The notes beneath the pieces were generated by a model. It saw only the letters and a list, made by a program, of their open reading frames with translations. It searched no databases and was not told the DNA's origin. From NCBI GenBank assembly GCA_009699315.1, contig WLOK01000003.1, forward strand, positions 1-53,995: 53,995 bases of DNA. The letters are read 5' to 3'. Position 1 is the stretch's first letter, and each line of letters starts with the position of its first letter. This document shows positions 5,761 through 39,554 of this stretch, one piece after another. The DNA comes from Actinomycetota bacterium (lineage in GTDB: Bacteria; Actinomycetota; Actinomycetes; S36-B12). Made by a program: the position numbers and the translations under genes.

Positions 5761-7083
5761 GTGTCTCTTACCTGGCCGGATCTCCCCGCCGCACAGCAGC
5801 CTGTGTGGCCGGATGAGGTTGCCCTCGCCGACGCACTTGCTGAGTTGCGCCGTCAGCCGCCGCTCGTGTTTGCGGGGGAGTGCGATGCACTCACCGAGCG
5901 TCTCGCTGCTGCCACGCGCGGCGAAGCTTTTGTGTTGACCGGTGGGGACTGCGCCGAGACATTTGCCGCCAATACGGCCGACTCGATTCGAGCCAGGCTC
6001 AAGACAGTGCTGCAGATGTCGATGGTGTTGACCTATGCGGCGTCGCTTCCGGTGGTCAAGTTGGGACGAGTTGCCGGGCAGTACTTCAAGCCGCGGTCGA
6101 CGCCGACTGAGACTCGTGATGGGGTTGAACTGCCGTCCTACTTTGGTGATGCGGTCAACGCAATCGAATTCGATGCCGTCTCGCGCCGTCCTGATCCCCA
6201 GCGCCTTCTGCGGACTTACAACGCGTCTGCCGCGGCCCTCAATCTCATTCGCGCTTTCACTCAAGGCGGATACGCGGACGTTCGACAGGTGCATGCGTGG
6301 AACCAAGATTTCGTCCGCGACTCTCCGGCCGGTCAGCGCTACGAGAAGATGGCTCAAGACATTGAGCGCGCATTGGCGTTCATGCAGGCATGTGGCGCCG
6401 ACCCCGAGGAGTTCCAGCGTGCGGATTTCTACGCGGCGCACGAAGCGCTGTGCCTCGACTACGAGAAGGCGCTGACTCGCATCGATTCCCGCACGGGGAC
6501 GCCTTATGACGTATCGGGACACTTCCTGTGGATCGGAGAGCGCACGCGTCAGGCCGACGGGGCGCACCTACATTTCGCCTCTGTGATTCGAAACCCCATC
6601 GGCGTCAAGGTGGGTCCAACAGCAACGCCGGAAGACGTAGTCAGTCTCGCCGAGCGGCTTAACCCCGAGCGGATTCCCGGACGATTGACATTGATCACCC
6701 GGATGGGAGCCGGCAAGATTCGGGCGACTCTGCCAAAGATTGTCGAGTCGGTCCAGGCCAGCGGGCACCCAGTGGTGTGGGTCTGCGACCCCATGCACGG
6801 CAATACCCGTCAGGCGGCCTCCGGCCACAAAACGCGTTCATTCGATGACGTTCTCGATGAAGTTCAAGGATTCTTCGATGTGCACGCCACGATCGGTTCG
6901 TTCCCGGGCGGCATCCACGTCGAACTCACCGGTGACGACGTCACAGAGTGTGTCGGCGGCACTGGTGGAGTGGCTGAAGATGGTCTGGGTGAGCGTTATG
7001 AAACAGCTTGCGATCCTCGGCTCAATCGCCAGCAAGCCCTAGAGCTCGCTTTCGTCGTCTCGGACATGCTCCTAAAGTGCTGA
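5761..7083 (+). CDS. aroH: Class II DAHP synthase
   Basis: GGDCAETF, GRVAGQYFKPRS, WIGERTR, CDPMHGNT, CDPRLN. Confidence 0.93.
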   Translation: MSLTWPDLPAAQQPVWPDEVALADALAELRRQPPLVFAGECDALTERLAAATRGEAFVLTGGDCAETFAANTADSIRARLKTVLQMSMVLTYAASLPVVKLGRVAGQYFKPRSTPTETRDGVELPSYFGDAVNAIEFDAVSRRPDPQRLLRTYNASAAALNLIRAFTQGGYADVRQVHAWNQDFVRDSPAGQRYEKMAQDIERALAFMQACGADPEEFQRADFYAAHEALCLDYEKALTRIDSRTGTPYDVSGHFLWIGERTRQADGAHLHFASVIRNPIGVKVGPTATPEDVVSLAERLNPERIPGRLTLITRMGAGKIRATLPKIVESVQASGHPVVWVCDPMHGNTRQAASGHKTRSFDDVLDEVQGFFDVHATIGSFPGGIHVELTGDDVTECVGGTGGVAEDGLGERYETACDPRLNRQQALELAFVVSDMLLKC

Positions 7084-7085
7084 CC

Positions 7086-7562
7086 ATGCTCGCGGTCACG
7101 AGGATCAAGACGCCTTGGTCCCCACTGACGATCATTGCCGACAATGACTGTGTCGTGTCGTCGTGGTTCGGTGAGCAGTCCCATCACCCGGTTGCTTGTG
7201 ATGAACCGATTCGCAAGACTCGCAGCATCGATGGCGTAACCGAGGCAGTTGGCGCGTGGCTCGACGGTGATCTGTCCAGCCTTGACCAAGTGAAAGTACG
7301 TCAGAGTGGTGGGCCGTTCTTTGAGCAGGTATGGACCGTCATGCGAGAGGTGTCTGCGGGAGAGACGGTCAGTTACGGAGAGCTTGCGATGCTTGCTGGT
7401 CGCCCTCGAGCAGCCCGTGCTGTGGGAACTGCGTGTGCAACTAACTCCGTCGCGCCATTTGTCCCCTGCCATCGAGTGGTCACCGCTACGGGCCGCATCG
7501 GCGCGTATGGATACGGAGTTGACTTGAAAGTCGCACTGTTACGACACGAAGGTGCTATCTGA
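7086..7562 (+). CDS. ogt: Methylated-DNA-protein-cysteine methyltransferase
   Basis: SYGELA, RAVGTAC and the PCHRV active site. Start reassigned to ATG 7086. Confidence 0.9.
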   Translation: MLAVTRIKTPWSPLTIIADNDCVVSSWFGEQSHHPVACDEPIRKTRSIDGVTEAVGAWLDGDLSSLDQVKVRQSGGPFFEQVWTVMREVSAGETVSYGELAMLAGRPRAARAVGTACATNSVAPFVPCHRVVTATGRIGAYGYGVDLKVALLRHEGAI

Positions 7563-7566
7563 TCCC

Positions 7567-7612
7567 AAAGAAGTAAACGGCCGCGGTACCGAATTCTCGG
7601 GAGCCGCGGCCG
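7567..7612 (-). terminator. Intrinsic terminator-like hairpin with a U-rich tail on the minus strand
   Basis: 9-bp GC stem CGGCCGCGG (7578-7586) / CCGCGGCCG (7604-7612) with an inner CCGA/TCGG stem, followed on the minus strand by TTTACTTCTTT. Confidence 0.7.
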
Positions 7613-7656
7613 CTGGTGACGCCTTGCCGAAGACGGCGCCACGTGCCTATTCAACC
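7567..7656 (-). ncRNA. Candidate ~90-nt LexA-controlled small RNA
   Basis: -10 TAGGGT (7663-7668, minus strand) directly next to an SOS box. It is followed by a hairpin containing cUUCGg and a G-U pair that only forms on the minus strand, then the terminator. Confidence 0.45.
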
Positions 7657-7668
7657 CCCTCGACCCTA

Positions 7669-7684
7669 TCGAACGCAAGTACGA
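7669..7684. promoter_or_regulatory. LexA (SOS) box
   Basis: TCGAAC-GCAA-GTACGA, one mismatch to the actinobacterial consensus TCGAAC-N4-GTTCGA. Intergenic. Confidence 0.7.
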
Positions 7685-7717
7685 TTAGGACGTGTTGCGG
7701 ATCTATGAGGGATGGAG

Positions 7718-8008
7718 CTACTTGACCAGGCTCAGGAGACCGGCCAGGACCGCAGAGATGGCCGCACACCACAGCATGATGACTCCGATAGCGGCGATGC
7801 GCAGGGGAGCCCGGGTGTCGGAGAACGCGATGGAGAACGCTCGTTTGGCGACACCTGAGAATGGGGTGGCTTCGTGGGCGGGGTCGCCATGGGGATCGCG
7901 CTGGAACCAGTAGGCACGCTCACTCGACATGCCCAACCAGACAAAGGCGAGGCCGAAGAGCGCAAGGGCTACAGCGATGATCAGGAAGACGAGGACGGCG
8001 ATGCTCAC
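7718..8008 (-). CDS. Small two-TM membrane protein of unknown function
   Basis: Two strongly hydrophobic segments around a polar loop. TAGGGT-N6-GTG leaderless start. Confidence 0.7.
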   Translation of the reverse strand: MSIAVLVFLIIAVALALFGLAFVWLGMSSERAYWFQRDPHGDPAHEATPFSGVAKRAFSIAFSDTRAPLRIAAIGVIMLWCAAISAVLAGLLSLVK

Positions 8009-8038
8009 AGTGAAACCCTACATGGCATGCTTCGCACA

Positions 8039-9826
8039 GTGGCACGCAACTACATCAACCTCGAGCATGTGCAAGTGGCCTTCTCGCACAAGGCCGTTCT
8101 TGACGACGTTTCCCTCGGGCTCAACGAAGCCGACCGCATCGGCATTGTCGGGCGAAATGGTGGAGGCAAGTCGACCCTGCTCCGCGTGCTCAGCGGGGCC
8201 TCGGTTGACTCCGGCCGCGTCACTCATGCTGGGGGATTGCGCGTAGGAATGCTCGCTCAGGTGGGCGATCCAGCGCCCGGAGTGACTATCCGTATGCGAG
8301 TTATCGGCGACCGACTCGATCACGAATGGGCAGCCGATGGCAAAACCCGCGATGTTCTTACGGGACTTCTTGGTGGGTTCGAAGATGCAGTGCTCGATCG
8401 CGAACTCACCAGCCTTTCCGGTGGAGAACTGCGACGTGTGGAGTTGGCTCACCTGCTCATTGATGGATGCGACGTACTCCTTCTCGACGAGCCCACAAAC
8501 CACCTTGACCTTGAGGCGGTTGCTTGGCTAGCCCGCCACCTCAAAGGGCTGCGCAACACGGCCCTAGCCGTGGTCACCCATGACCGCTGGTTCTTGGACG
8601 AAGTGACTGACCGCACCTGGGAAGTCATCCGCGGACAGATTGAGGAGTACGACGGCGGTTACTCGGCCTATGTTCTGGCGAAAGCAGAGCGCTCGCGGCA
8701 GGACGCAACGATGGAGGCACGACGAGCAAACCTCCTCCGCAAGGAACTCGCGTGGCTTCGTCGCGGTCCGCCCGCGAGGACCACTAAGCCGAAATTTCGT
8801 ATTGACGCAGCAAATACCTTGATCGCCACCGAACCTCCTGCACGCAACGACGTGGAGCTGGTCAATTTCGCTTCTGCCCGGCTGGGGCGCACTGTCATGG
8901 ATGCTCAAGACGTATCCGTGACGCTGGGGGAGCGTGAACTCATCCACCGACTTACCTGGAGCGTCGGTCCCGGCGATCGGGTCGGGATTCTCGGACCTAA
9001 CGGTGCGGGCAAGACCACTCTCATCCGCATGTTGCTCGGGGACCAACGCGTGGACTCTGGCAAGCTTGTGATCGGGAAGACCGTCAAGCCGGCCTATCTC
9101 TCGCAGCACCTAGATGAACTCAATCCCAATCTTCGAGTTCTTGAAGCAGTTCAGGAGATCGCTGAGTTCGTAGATCTGGGCAAGGGACGGGAGATGTCGG
9201 CCTCGACCTTGTGCGAGCGGCTCGGCTTCGATGCCGGGTCGCAGTGGACGCCTGTGGGCGACCTGTCGGGCGGTGAACGCCGACGTCTGCAGCTCACGCG
9301 ATTGCTCATGGCTGGGCCTAATGTCTTGATCCTCGACGAACCTACGAATGACTTCGACGTGGAGACTTTGGCCGCCCTAGAGGACCTTTTGGATGGATTT
9401 GCCGGGACGATTCTGATCGTGTCCCATGACCGGTATTTCATTGAGCGGGTGTGCGAGACCTATCGGGCCGTACTCGGGGATGGGGACGTCCGCGATCTAC
9501 CCGGTGGCGTCGATGAATACCTCGCCCTACGAAGTGCAGCGCTCTCTGGCGGACGTGGAACTCCCACCAAGGCCCAGGCGCCTGAAGAGTTCAAAGTTCC
9601 CGCGCTCTCCGCCGCGGAACGTCGAGAGGTTAATAAGCAGGTGGCTTCACTTGAGCGCAAGATGAATACCGCCCAGGAGAAGGTCGCAGCGATTCACCAA
9701 CTCATGCATGAACACGCCACGGATCATGATGCACTGCGGGCGGATGGTGCTGCGCTACGTAAGGCAGAAGCGAAGCTCGCCGAGATCGAGATGGAGTGGT
9801 ACGCCGCACTCGAATTGCTCAACTGA
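8039..9826 (+). CDS. ABC-F family ATPase (Uup-like)
   Basis: Two ABC domains (GRNGGGKS/LSGGE/LDEPTN and GPNGAGKT/LSGGE/LDEPTN), no TM segments, C-terminal coiled coil. Start reassigned to GTG 8039. Confidence 0.9.
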   Translation: MARNYINLEHVQVAFSHKAVLDDVSLGLNEADRIGIVGRNGGGKSTLLRVLSGASVDSGRVTHAGGLRVGMLAQVGDPAPGVTIRMRVIGDRLDHEWAADGKTRDVLTGLLGGFEDAVLDRELTSLSGGELRRVELAHLLIDGCDVLLLDEPTNHLDLEAVAWLARHLKGLRNTALAVVTHDRWFLDEVTDRTWEVIRGQIEEYDGGYSAYVLAKAERSRQDATMEARRANLLRKELAWLRRGPPARTTKPKFRIDAANTLIATEPPARNDVELVNFASARLGRTVMDAQDVSVTLGERELIHRLTWSVGPGDRVGILGPNGAGKTTLIRMLLGDQRVDSGKLVIGKTVKPAYLSQHLDELNPNLRVLEAVQEIAEFVDLGKGREMSASTLCERLGFDAGSQWTPVGDLSGGERRRLQLTRLLMAGPNVLILDEPTNDFDVETLAALEDLLDGFAGTILIVSHDRYFIERVCETYRAVLGDGDVRDLPGGVDEYLALRSAALSGGRGTPTKAQAPEEFKVPALSAAERREVNKQVASLERKMNTAQEKVAAIHQLMHEHATDHDALRADGAALRKAEAKLAEIEMEWYAALELLN

Positions 9827-29491: not shown

Positions 29492-30271
29492 CTACTTGGA
29501 GAACGCCGGACAGATTGCCTTGTGTGCGCACCAATCGCACAACCGGCTGGTCTTTGTGGGCCATTCATCAAGCTCGATGGCTCGTTCGATCGCCTCGTGT
29601 AGCGCCATGATTGTGCGCTCGATGGCGAGAAGATCCTCTTCGGTCGGCTCGTAGCGCACGATCTCGCCACTGCCCAGATAGAGCAGTTGCAGCATTTTCG
29701 GGATCTCCCCACGGATTCGCCACACGACCAGCGCGTAAAAACGCATCTGGAACAGCGCCTTGCCCTCGTAGGCAGGCTTAGGCGCCTTTCCGGTCTTGTA
29801 ATCGACGATGCGTATCGCGCCATCGGGCGCGATGTCGAGTCGATCCACATAGCCGCGCAAGACGAGACCTGACGCAGTCTCGGTGCGTACCTCAACTTCG
29901 CGCCCCTCTGGTTCGAGGCGTCGCGGATCCTCGAGTCGGAAATAGGCGTGAATCAGCGGTCGCGCTTCGTTGAGCCACGCTAAGACATTGGCCGAGGATG
30001 CGTCACCCCCGGGAACTGCGACGTCAAGAAGTGCCGGATCGTCAGCGAGCAAAGCGTCCCAAGCTTCTTCGATGAGTTCCACAACATTGTCCGGTGTGCG
30101 GTCGGGTGCCGGAAGGTCGAACATGCGCTCAAGGACCTCATGCACGAGGGTGCCCTTAAGAGCTGCGGCGCTGGGTGGCTCGGGAAGCCGGTCTATCGCG
30201 CGGTACTTGAACAATTGCGGGCACTGCATGAAGTCCTGGGCCCGAGACGGCGACAAAGAAGTGATCGACAT
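29492..30271 (-). CDS. RecB-family PD-(D/E)XK exonuclease with a Cas4-like Cys pattern
   Basis: LSPSR..DF.QCP, GTLVHEVLE, RGYVDRLD, IVDYKTG, Q..FY, LCDWC...ICP. Confidence 0.9.
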   Translation of the reverse strand: MSITSLSPSRAQDFMQCPQLFKYRAIDRLPEPPSAAALKGTLVHEVLERMFDLPAPDRTPDNVVELIEEAWDALLADDPALLDVAVPGGDASSANVLAWLNEARPLIHAYFRLEDPRRLEPEGREVEVRTETASGLVLRGYVDRLDIAPDGAIRIVDYKTGKAPKPAYEGKALFQMRFYALVVWRIRGEIPKMLQLLYLGSGEIVRYEPTEEDLLAIERTIMALHEAIERAIELDEWPTKTSRLCDWCAHKAICPAFSK

Positions 30272-38609: not shown

Positions 38610-39554
38610 GTGGCTGTCGATCGCACGGAGCGGCTACTCAATCTGGTGTTCTGCCTGATGGCCTCTCGCCGTGCGGTTCCTCGGTCGTTTATCCGCGCAA
38701 ACGTCACTGGTTATGGCGGCAGCGCCTCAGATGACGCCTTTGAGCGCATGTTCGAACGCGATAAAGACGAGTTGCGGGCGATGGGTATTCCGATCGAGAC
38801 AGTCATGTCCGGCGCTGAGGTCGAGGGCTACCGCATCACGCACGAGGACTATGCACTTGACGATCTTCGTTTCTCGCCGTCTGAGTTGAGTGTTTTGGCC
38901 GTAGCCGCACAGGTGTGGGAAACAGCCGCTCGACAACCAGCGGCCGCGACTGCGCTGCGCAAAATTGAAGCTCTCGACGGCAATGAGGGCGCAGGCAGTC
39001 TGCTGATCGGAGTCACGGGCGCCTCCGCAACATCCATGCCGGCCATCGTTCCGTTGTTGCGTGCCATTCGCCGCCGACAACGCGTGCGTTTCGACTACCG
39101 CAAACCCGATGCATCTGCGGCGGAGGCCCGCAAAGTGGAACCGTGGGCCTTGGTGGCCTGGCGTGGTGCGTGGTATCTCGTCGGTCTCGATGTGGATCGC
39201 ACATCACAAAGAGTCTTCCGCCTCTCGCGTATTGACGGCACAGTCACGGCATTTGGTGCAGATGACTCGTTCAGCATTCCGCGGGATACCGACCCGCGTT
39301 CGGCAGTAGGCGACTGGATCGGCGACTCACCCAATCGCACTGTCCAAGTTCAGGTGAGTCCAGGTGCTGGAGCATCCTTGCGATTGCGTGGATCCCTTGC
39401 TGGCGATGTTGTGTCAGTGACCTGCGCAGACGGACTTGACGTGGTGCCCGAGATTCTCTCTGCAGGTCCCGACGCGGTAGTGCTCGAACCTCGCGATGTG
39501 CGCGAGGTCGTCGTGCAACGCTTGCAGAACCTAATTGCGGAGCACACGCGATGA
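38610..39554 (+). CDS. pafB: HTH-WYL transcriptional activator PafB
   Basis: ERLLNL, FERMFERDKDELR, WYLVG, RVFRLSRI. Confidence 0.9.
   Translation: MAVDRTERLLNLVFCLMASRRAVPRSFIRANVTGYGGSASDDAFERMFERDKDELRAMGIPIETVMSGAEVEGYRITHEDYALDDLRFSPSELSVLAVAAQVWETAARQPAAATALRKIEALDGNEGAGSLLIGVTGASATSMPAIVPLLRAIRRRQRVRFDYRKPDASAAEARKVEPWALVAWRGAWYLVGLDVDRTSQRVFRLSRIDGTVTAFGADDSFSIPRDTDPRSAVGDWIGDSPNRTVQVQVSPGAGASLRLRGSLAGDVVSVTCADGLDVVPEILSAGPDAVVLEPRDVREVVVQRLQNLIAEHTR

Follow-up and report, generated by a model that had tools for sequence, protein, structure and literature searches.

A candidate LexA-repressed small RNA between two convergent genes in an uncultured genus of Candidatus Nanopelagicales

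Small RNAs (sRNAs) under the direct control of LexA are scarce. The clearest directly LexA-controlled base-pairing sRNA is DinR of Klebsiella pneumoniae, and its authors remark that further examples are lacking (PMC10907235). Actinobacteria are already known to have sRNA genes with LexA sites; there the links are partial (6C) or come without induction (MTS1082). The current study deals with a 53,995-nt stretch of actinobacterial DNA (contig WLOK01000003.1 of assembly GCA_009699315.1, here called the window), in which a predicted LexA operator (SOS box), a putative -10 hexamer and two hairpins lie in a gap enclosed by the stops of two convergent genes, an ogt-type gene and an open reading frame (ORF) for a small membrane protein.

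The 6C RNA is defined by at least six conserved cytosines in each of two loops, and in Corynebacterium glutamicum a LexA operator was demonstrated at its promoter by electrophoretic mobility shift assay; this operator is placed close to the -35 region, some 50 bp before the start, and brings about partial repression only (PMC5014011). Two sRNAs of Mycobacterium tuberculosis, MTS1082 and MTS2823, coincide with LexA peaks in chromatin immunoprecipitation sequencing (ChIP-seq). In that study neither was induced by mitomycin C, the LexA site of MTS1082 lies inside the sRNA, and MTS2823 has no identifiable SOS box (PMC3381160). Mitomycin-induced noncoding RNAs of M. tuberculosis have been catalogued in a further study (PMC5057432). 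The paper on the LexA regulon of Streptomyces venezuelae, supplements aside, makes no mention of small or noncoding RNA or of intergenic sites (PMC9380542), and no paper linking Nanopelagicales with sRNA was found in the literature searched.

With slightly better than even confidence, the unit in the gap is read here as the gene of a genus-restricted, LexA-repressed, stand-alone sRNA of about 85-91 nt, transcribed from the minus strand (~7657 to ~7567). The chances were judged to be even that this would be an undescribed sRNA family of one uncultured freshwater genus of Candidatus Nanopelagicales, with a perfect LexA operator fully occluding its promoter, and that it would form a dedicated non-coding arm of the actinobacterial SOS response. 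That LexA binds, that the unit is transcribed, where the RNA begins and ends and what it might target are predictions drawn from the sequence; at that level the unit is real and under selection, and as an RNA it is a candidate. When positions 6800-8300 were read, every element described in a first-pass annotation of this DNA was found where it had been placed. The elements are as follows.

7669-7684, both strands: predicted LexA operator, read from the sequence as TCGAAC-GCAA-GTACGA on the plus strand and TCGTAC-TTGC-GTTCGA on the minus strand.
7663-7668, minus strand (ACCCTA on the plus strand): putative -10 hexamer TAGGGT, of the TANNNT type, directly abutting the box.
7655-7657, minus strand: predicted transcription start, a G placed by spacing 6-8 nt past the -10 hexamer.
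7643-7657, minus strand: single-stranded 5' tail of 15 nt, GGGUUGAAUAGGCAC, unpaired in the minimum free energy (MFE) and centroid folds.
7616-7642, minus strand: hairpin 1, with an 8-bp stem GUGGCGCC/GGCGUCAC and loop GUCUUCGGCAA, from the MFE fold and the alignment.
7613-7615, minus strand: linker CAG.
7578-7612, minus strand: hairpin 2, terminator-like, with a 9-bp GC outer stem CGGCCGCGG/CCGCGGCCG, a 4-bp inner stem CCGA/UCGG and loop CUCCCGAGAAUUCGGUA.
7567-7577, minus strand: U-rich tail UUUACUUCUUU, weak and poorly conserved.
7699-7712, no strand assigned: conserved 14-nt block, TCCCTCATAGATCC when read on the minus strand, between the membrane-gene stop and the box and about 30 nt upstream of the -10 hexamer.

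The actinobacterial LexA operator consensus is TCGAAC-N4-GTTCGA, found at recA, lexA and ruvC. The box differs from this canonical form at one position, and within the window it is the sole site with at most one mismatch from TCGAACNNNNGTTCGA; eight sites were found at up to two mismatches, against 3.4 expected. A scan of the whole host genome for TCGWAC-N4-GTWCGA gave 3 perfect and 28 one-mismatch sites. The number of perfect sites exceeded the 0.53 expected from an analytical first-order Markov calculation over 2.13 Mb (Poisson P(>=3) = 0.017). The perfect sites, followed by four of the one-mismatch sites, are listed below (contig:position).

C115:7669: TCGAAC-GCAA-GTACGA, perfect, in the convergent-gene gap (the site under study).
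C29:1278 (L030:1278-1293): perfect, 36 nt 5' of a DUF6504 gene (E 8.2e-20), which is followed by a HEPN_SAV_6107 gene (E 1.2e-33).
C140:8965 (L029:1966-1981): perfect, within a class I/II aminotransferase gene (PF00155).
recA box, contig C120: TCGTAC-ACGC-GTTCGG, one mismatch, upstream of recA.
lexA box, contig C176: TCGTAC-TCAT-GTTCTA, one mismatch, upstream of lexA.
C1:50804: one mismatch, upstream of ruvC (PF02075, E 6.9e-49).
C79:13273: TAGTAC-GCCC-GTTCGA, one mismatch, upstream of a DUF222-HNH gene.

Both recA and lexA are thus encoded in the host genome, and since their upstream boxes carry TCGTAC halves, the local operator appears to tolerate A or T at the fourth position of the half-site. 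The first-pass annotation had called the box near-perfect; it is one of three perfect sites in the genome, its motif stands upstream of recA, lexA and ruvC, and it is retained at 16 of 16 positions in the relatives described below. By all sequence tests applied, it is a genuine SOS box. The intragenic site C140:8965, the only fully canonical TCGAAC-N4-GTTCGA in the genome, could be either a chance occurrence or a LexA site.

The layout around the box also resembles that of other SOS genes of this genome. On the minus strand, TCGTAC-N4-GTTCGA is followed after 0 nt by TAGGGT, as had been noted from the window; the recA box has TAGTGT 2 nt behind it, and the box of the DUF222-HNH gene has TAATCT 1 nt behind it. 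In all three cases the TCGTAC-type half is distal and the GTTCGA-type half proximal to the hexamer, giving the same orientation toward the gene. Elsewhere in the window, a 25-nt inverted repeat with 88% complementarity (30117-30141 and 38731-38755, arms 8.6 kb apart) carries a degenerate SOS-box-like word in each arm.

The comparisons that follow rest on five sequences, all from one genus of Candidatus Nanopelagicales: the host genome (G000; 2.13 Mb in 191 contigs, 90.6% complete, 60% G+C, with the window as contig C115), genomes G002 and G003, and the metagenome contigs L027 and L028. A BLAST search of 41 genomes with positions 7450-7800 recovered the full stretch only in the congeneric G002 (82%) and G003 (81%), the other three matches covering the ogt coding sequence or short stretches. 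A covariance model of the box, hairpins and tail (R1), run on 151 genomes of the family and 151 of the order, scored only G000, G002 and G003 (151-161 bits). Five marginal matches (20-22 bits) were rejected as homologues, being without the box on inspection. The two metagenome contigs were retrieved with a 20-mer spanning the -10 hexamer and the 5' tail, a pattern that leaves the box outside. As far as searched, the unit is confined to one genus.

Gene order around the unit (ABC-F gene, membrane gene, unit, ogt) was common to all four relatives. The genus has a fourth genome, G001, which is 90% complete; no match to the membrane gene was found in it, and its ogt homologue was 47% identical and stood in a different context. 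Eight loci of other genera (L019-L026) have a homologue of the membrane gene (55-65% identity) with a co-directional ORF directly downstream, and no box at up to two mismatches was detected within 1.5 kb downstream of it. In two other genera, the ogt homologues likewise had no box downstream. Because the other genera have another ORF behind the membrane-gene homologue, with neither ogt nor ABC-F adjacent, the order of genes at the unit is genus-specific. In those eight loci the trailing ORF encodes a membrane protein, and its start sometimes overlaps the stop of the membrane-gene homologue.

Identities of the four relatives to the host genome were calculated by position class.

Third codon positions of ogt: 0.56-0.62.
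Third codon positions of DAHP synthase: 0.55-0.57.
Third codon positions of ABC-F: 0.65-0.71.
Third codon positions of the membrane gene: 0.70-0.86.
First and second codon positions: 0.90-0.95.
Unit in its full length (7578-7684): 0.88-0.95.
LexA box: 16/16 in each of the four.
Tail and spacer, 7563-7577: 0.40-0.80, near the neutral level.

Third-position values lay at 0.55-0.72 with a single exception (0.86, membrane gene). Conservation of the box is independent of retrieval in all four relatives, and the bases from the -10 hexamer up to the start were identical at 11 of 11 positions, which is independent evidence for G002 and G003 only. In 20-nt windows, identity peaked at 7660-7679 (1.00) and 7620-7639 (0.98). 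The 20 nt on the minus-strand side of the box were invariant and its plus-strand side (7685-7698) varied. Judged by these identities, the predicted promoter, 5' tail and hairpin 1 are selected as strongly as protein-coding positions, and more strongly than the loop and tail of the terminator. This is the reverse of homologues that keep the terminator hairpin alone, the outcome that the first-pass annotation had named as contrary to its proposal.

The same values bear on the suggestion that the box is an orphan or relic LexA site that gives rise to no transcript. It could be what is left of an SOS promoter at a rearrangement breakpoint, or a place where LexA binds to no regulatory effect, with the hairpins conserved only as a bidirectional terminator. 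LexA ChIP-seq sites without apparent regulation are described in a study of M. tuberculosis, where the site at MTS1082 did not respond to mitomycin C (PMC3381160); in addition, the gene order at the unit differs from that in other genera, and another perfect box sits inside the aminotransferase gene. A relic would be expected to decay, yet the box, the -10 hexamer, the 5' tail and hairpin 1 were conserved at least as well as first and second codon positions, while neutral sites differed by 30-45%. Terminators, moreover, usually keep their structure and not their loop sequence, and the loop of hairpin 1 was identical in four of the five sequences. A relic is accordingly considered unlikely.

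The direction of the promoter also had to be considered, as the box contains a TANNNT-type hexamer on the plus strand, TACGAT (7680-7685), with a GTG 6 nt downstream. From a start at about 7692, LexA could control an antisense RNA to the membrane gene and/or a long ABC-F leader (about 335 nt, up to the gene start at 8027), with the hairpins as shared terminators of the convergent genes. Facing its gene, the perfect box before DUF6504 likewise reads TCGAAC-N4-GTACGA, and the conserved block at 7699-7712 lies on that side. Against this, positions 7686-7698 varied among the relatives and the minus side was invariant for 39 nt; in G002 and G003 a 4-nt indel puts the ORF from 7692 out of frame; and the near-invariant hairpin 1 with its loop, and the G-U pairs that form on the minus strand only, would be left without an explanation. 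A promoter serving the plus strand is regarded as quite unlikely.

The block at 7699-7712 was identical in four of the five sequences, with one change in L027. It was tried as a repeated motif and as a structured element and rejected as both, being unique in the genome at up to two mismatches (chance-like matches aside) and having no significant fold (z = -0.36). It may be the site of a second regulator.

The hairpins also provide evidence for a minus-strand RNA. After the -10 region the minus strand reads CGAGGGG, GUUGAAUAGGCAC, hairpin 1, CAG, hairpin 2 and UUUACUUCUUU. The predicted transcript of 91 nt (7657 to 7567) folded into a free 15-nt tail and two hairpins with an energy of -41.8 kcal/mol (z = -2.99; 0 of 200 shuffles as stable); a wider piece of 98 nt gave z = -1.77. 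In the five-sequence alignment, the first nine nucleotides of the 5' tail were invariant and the last six variable, and 99% of the 105 pair cells held standard pairs. Both hairpins were conserved in all five sequences, which bears out the two-hairpin structure proposed from the window alone.

In hairpin 1, all eight pairs were standard in each of the five sequences, and the loop GUCUUCGGCAA was identical in four of them. Its G-U pair, which on the plus strand would be an A-C mismatch, was invariant in all five, and the closing pair was G-C in G000, G-U in G002, G003 and L028, and A-U in L027. The earlier argument from this G-U pair for a minus-strand RNA was thereby strengthened. A plus-strand fold retained hairpin 2 and broke up hairpin 1. 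The G-U pairs and this fold indicate that hairpin 1 belongs to a minus-strand RNA, while hairpin 2 would work on either strand. In hairpin 2 the loop varied in both sequence and length among relatives, and RNAalifold showed an interior pair that is U-A in three sequences and A-U in two, a change compatible with both strands. An anti-Shine-Dalgarno-like CUCCC, to which the first-pass annotation had drawn attention, was present in three of the five sequences and replaced by GAUCC in the other two, and so did not hold up as a conserved element.

Two ORFs in the region were tried and discarded. One, of 101 codons on the minus strand (7678-7373), is the only minus frame with a start codon, and it does not stay in register, since loop 2 carries a 2-nt indel that separates G002, G003 and L028 from G000 and L027. 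The other begins on the plus strand with the GTG at 7692 and is broken by the 4-nt indel in G002 and G003. Because of these indels there is no conserved ORF on either strand. The possibility that the SOS promoter drives a small protein from a leaderless or short-leader UUG or GUG ORF, in the manner of SOS-induced type I toxins, is very improbable. The 101-codon frame is open through the region, and in L027 a change of the first stem base creates an ATG. There is no Shine-Dalgarno sequence, however, the frame changes after about 20 codons at the loop-2 indel, and substitutions in the 5' tail alter amino acids; the ORF also runs antisense through ogt, and open frames are expected in GC-rich DNA.

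Searches for known RNA families were consistent with an undescribed RNA, as first proposed. In 7300-8000 at E <= 10, cmscan against Rfam gave no match in the unit and only an unrelated rox1 match at 7810-7859; at gathering thresholds the whole window contained four tRNAs only. The earlier suggestion of a highly diverged 6C analogue was not borne out. The 6C model (RF01066, gathering score 47 bits) had no match in 7300-8000 even at E <= 10, and the C-rich loops are absent: loop 1, GUCUUCGGCAA, has three cytosines and loop 2, CUCCCGAGAAUUCGGUA, which differs among the relatives, has five in G000, short of the six per loop that characterize 6C. The family and order samples, 300 genomes besides the host and its relatives, yielded no bridging intermediates. 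In favour of kinship, the 91-nt fold has two hairpins and falls in the range of about 80-90 nt, a LexA operator is likewise present at the 6C promoter of C. glutamicum, close to the -35 region (PMC5014011), and no 6C was found elsewhere in the host genome. This last search (0 matches to RF01066) was of limited sensitivity and says little about absence, because the C. glutamicum control itself stayed below the cut-off. Membership of the 6C family is considered highly improbable.

Taken as an sRNA gene, the unit would work as follows. In undamaged cells a LexA dimer on 7669-7684 would fill the promoter spacer and touch the -10 hexamer TAGGGT, excluding RNA polymerase. DNA damage would lead to RecA-stimulated self-cleavage of LexA and so free the promoter, and an RNA of about 90 nt, starting at the G at 7655-7657 and ending after hairpin 2, would accumulate. 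The predicted transcript begins with the free 15-nt 5' tail, in which GGGUUGAAU is invariant; next comes the 8-bp hairpin 1, also invariant, with GUCUUCGGCAA as its loop, and last the GC-rich hairpin 2 and its short run rich in U. Hairpin 2 would also terminate the transcript of the upstream membrane gene, so that the arrangement resembles an sRNA with its own promoter within a 3' untranslated region (UTR). The RNA may act by base pairing to mRNAs through the GGGUUGAAU tail and/or the loop GUCUUCGGCAA. Since its 3' part is antisense to the 3' end of ogt, an action in cis on ogt is also possible.

An alternative that accepts the minus-facing promoter holds that the RNA acts mainly in cis on ogt, through its antisense 3' half or through read-through interference. 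Only 5 nt separate the RNA tail from the ogt stop codon (7560-7562), and any 3' UTR of ogt would thus pair with the RNA over its full length. The U-rich tail is weak and unconserved (0.40-0.80), no canonical terminator was scored, and the unit was seen only at loci with a convergent ogt beside it (ogt has this place in four of four congeneric loci and in none of the eight more distant loci). Pure cis antisense, on the other hand, needs neither an invariant 5' tail nor a hairpin-1 loop outside the overlap with ogt coding sequence, and hairpin 2, which is GC-rich and followed by UUUACUUC, has a strong 9-bp GC stem with 5 U among the first 8 nt after it. A mainly cis-acting RNA is rather unlikely.

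Targets were sought with gene starts taken from a crude ORF heuristic (2,116 start regions). No start region stood out in duplex energy, either with the 5' tail (minimum -18.4, mean -10.7) or with loop 1, where the minimum was -22.4 and the mean -12.1. The complement of loop 1 matched 219 times in a k-mer scan, being a common coding word, and seed scans gave nothing that stood out. The best match of loop 2 was a 14-nt perfect complement (L038:1488-1501, contig C123) covering the ribosome-binding region where two ABC permease genes, each of PF00528, meet at TGATG; it was rejected as a target because it is lost in G002 and G003, where loop and site both differ without compensation. A 13-nt complement of loop 1 and its flanks was also seen within two paralogous genes (C20:5588 and C185:6673), the translations of which look by eye like the region of a principal sigma factor.

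Several results weigh against the proposal of a stand-alone sRNA. A search for RNA sequencing runs covering 6000-9500 listed none. Only five sequences are known, from a single genus, and the 20-mer stretch is identical in L027 and L028 by construction, because it was used for their retrieval. A scan of 7000-8200 with E. coli-type consensus detected no sigma-70 promoter, there is no -35 hexamer, and the hexamer TACGAT (7680-7685) inside the box offers an alternative on the plus strand. The E. coli-type scan of the same region for canonical terminators was also negative, hairpin 2 falling outside its model of 3-8-nt loops, and termination may be leaky, since the U tail is short and conserved at the neutral level. 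In G002, hairpin 2 contains one A-C mismatch on the minus strand that is a G-U pair on the plus strand. Covariation had no statistical support (405 of 500 shuffles reached the observed score); 19 of the 21 pairs never vary, which is why the shuffle control gives none, and no pair showed a two-sided change relative to its commonest form. Finally, the duplex-energy, k-mer and seed scans found no convincing conserved target.

The genes flanking the unit are as follows.

7086-7562 (stop 7560-7562), plus strand: ogt-type gene for 6-O-methylguanine-DNA methyltransferase (PF01035, E 8.9e-31).
8008-7718 (stop 7718-7720), minus strand: membrane ORF of 96 amino acids, upstream of the candidate RNA on the same strand.

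No Pfam family was matched by the 96-amino-acid membrane ORF, which has homologues at 10 loci (55-89% identity). The outer neighbours of the locus encode a class II DAHP synthase and an ABC-F ATPase. Downstream of the candidate RNA there is no gene on the minus strand, ogt being convergent. The divergent starts of the membrane gene (8008, minus strand) and of the ABC-F gene (likely ATG at 8027, plus strand) are about 18 nt apart (window positions 8008-8029), and for this reason their promoters must each overlap the other gene, or their mRNAs must be leaderless.

If the proposal is correct, the unit would represent a stand-alone, directly LexA-repressed base-pairing RNA, which is very rare in any bacterium, and its compact form would make it a clean model of the way in which the SOS response extends to post-transcriptional control among Actinobacteria, which to our knowledge lack Hfq. 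The adjacency of ogt could connect the SOS response with alkylation repair. The impact is limited by the finding of the unit in one genus of an uncultured lineage.

Compared with the known actinobacterial LexA operator, the box shows an identical palindrome except that one half-site carries a single A/T swap, and the same swap is found at recA, lexA and the DUF6504 operon of the host genome; unlike the operators at recA, lexA and ruvC, it precedes no protein-coding gene. With DinR the candidate shares the proposed nature of a base-pairing sRNA under direct LexA control, but it has a predicted promoter of its own and an actinobacterial host, and the types of box differ. Like MTS1082 and MTS2823 it would be an actinobacterial sRNA gene at a LexA site; its box is perfect and would occlude the promoter. 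No sequence similarity to these two RNAs was seen, although no search aimed at it was made. With 6C (RF01066) it has in common an actinobacterial origin, a length of about 80-90 nt, two hairpins and a link to the SOS response. Whereas 6C is widespread, the candidate RNA was found in one genus only, and unlike that of C. glutamicum 6C, its box takes up the promoter spacer and directly adjoins the -10 hexamer.

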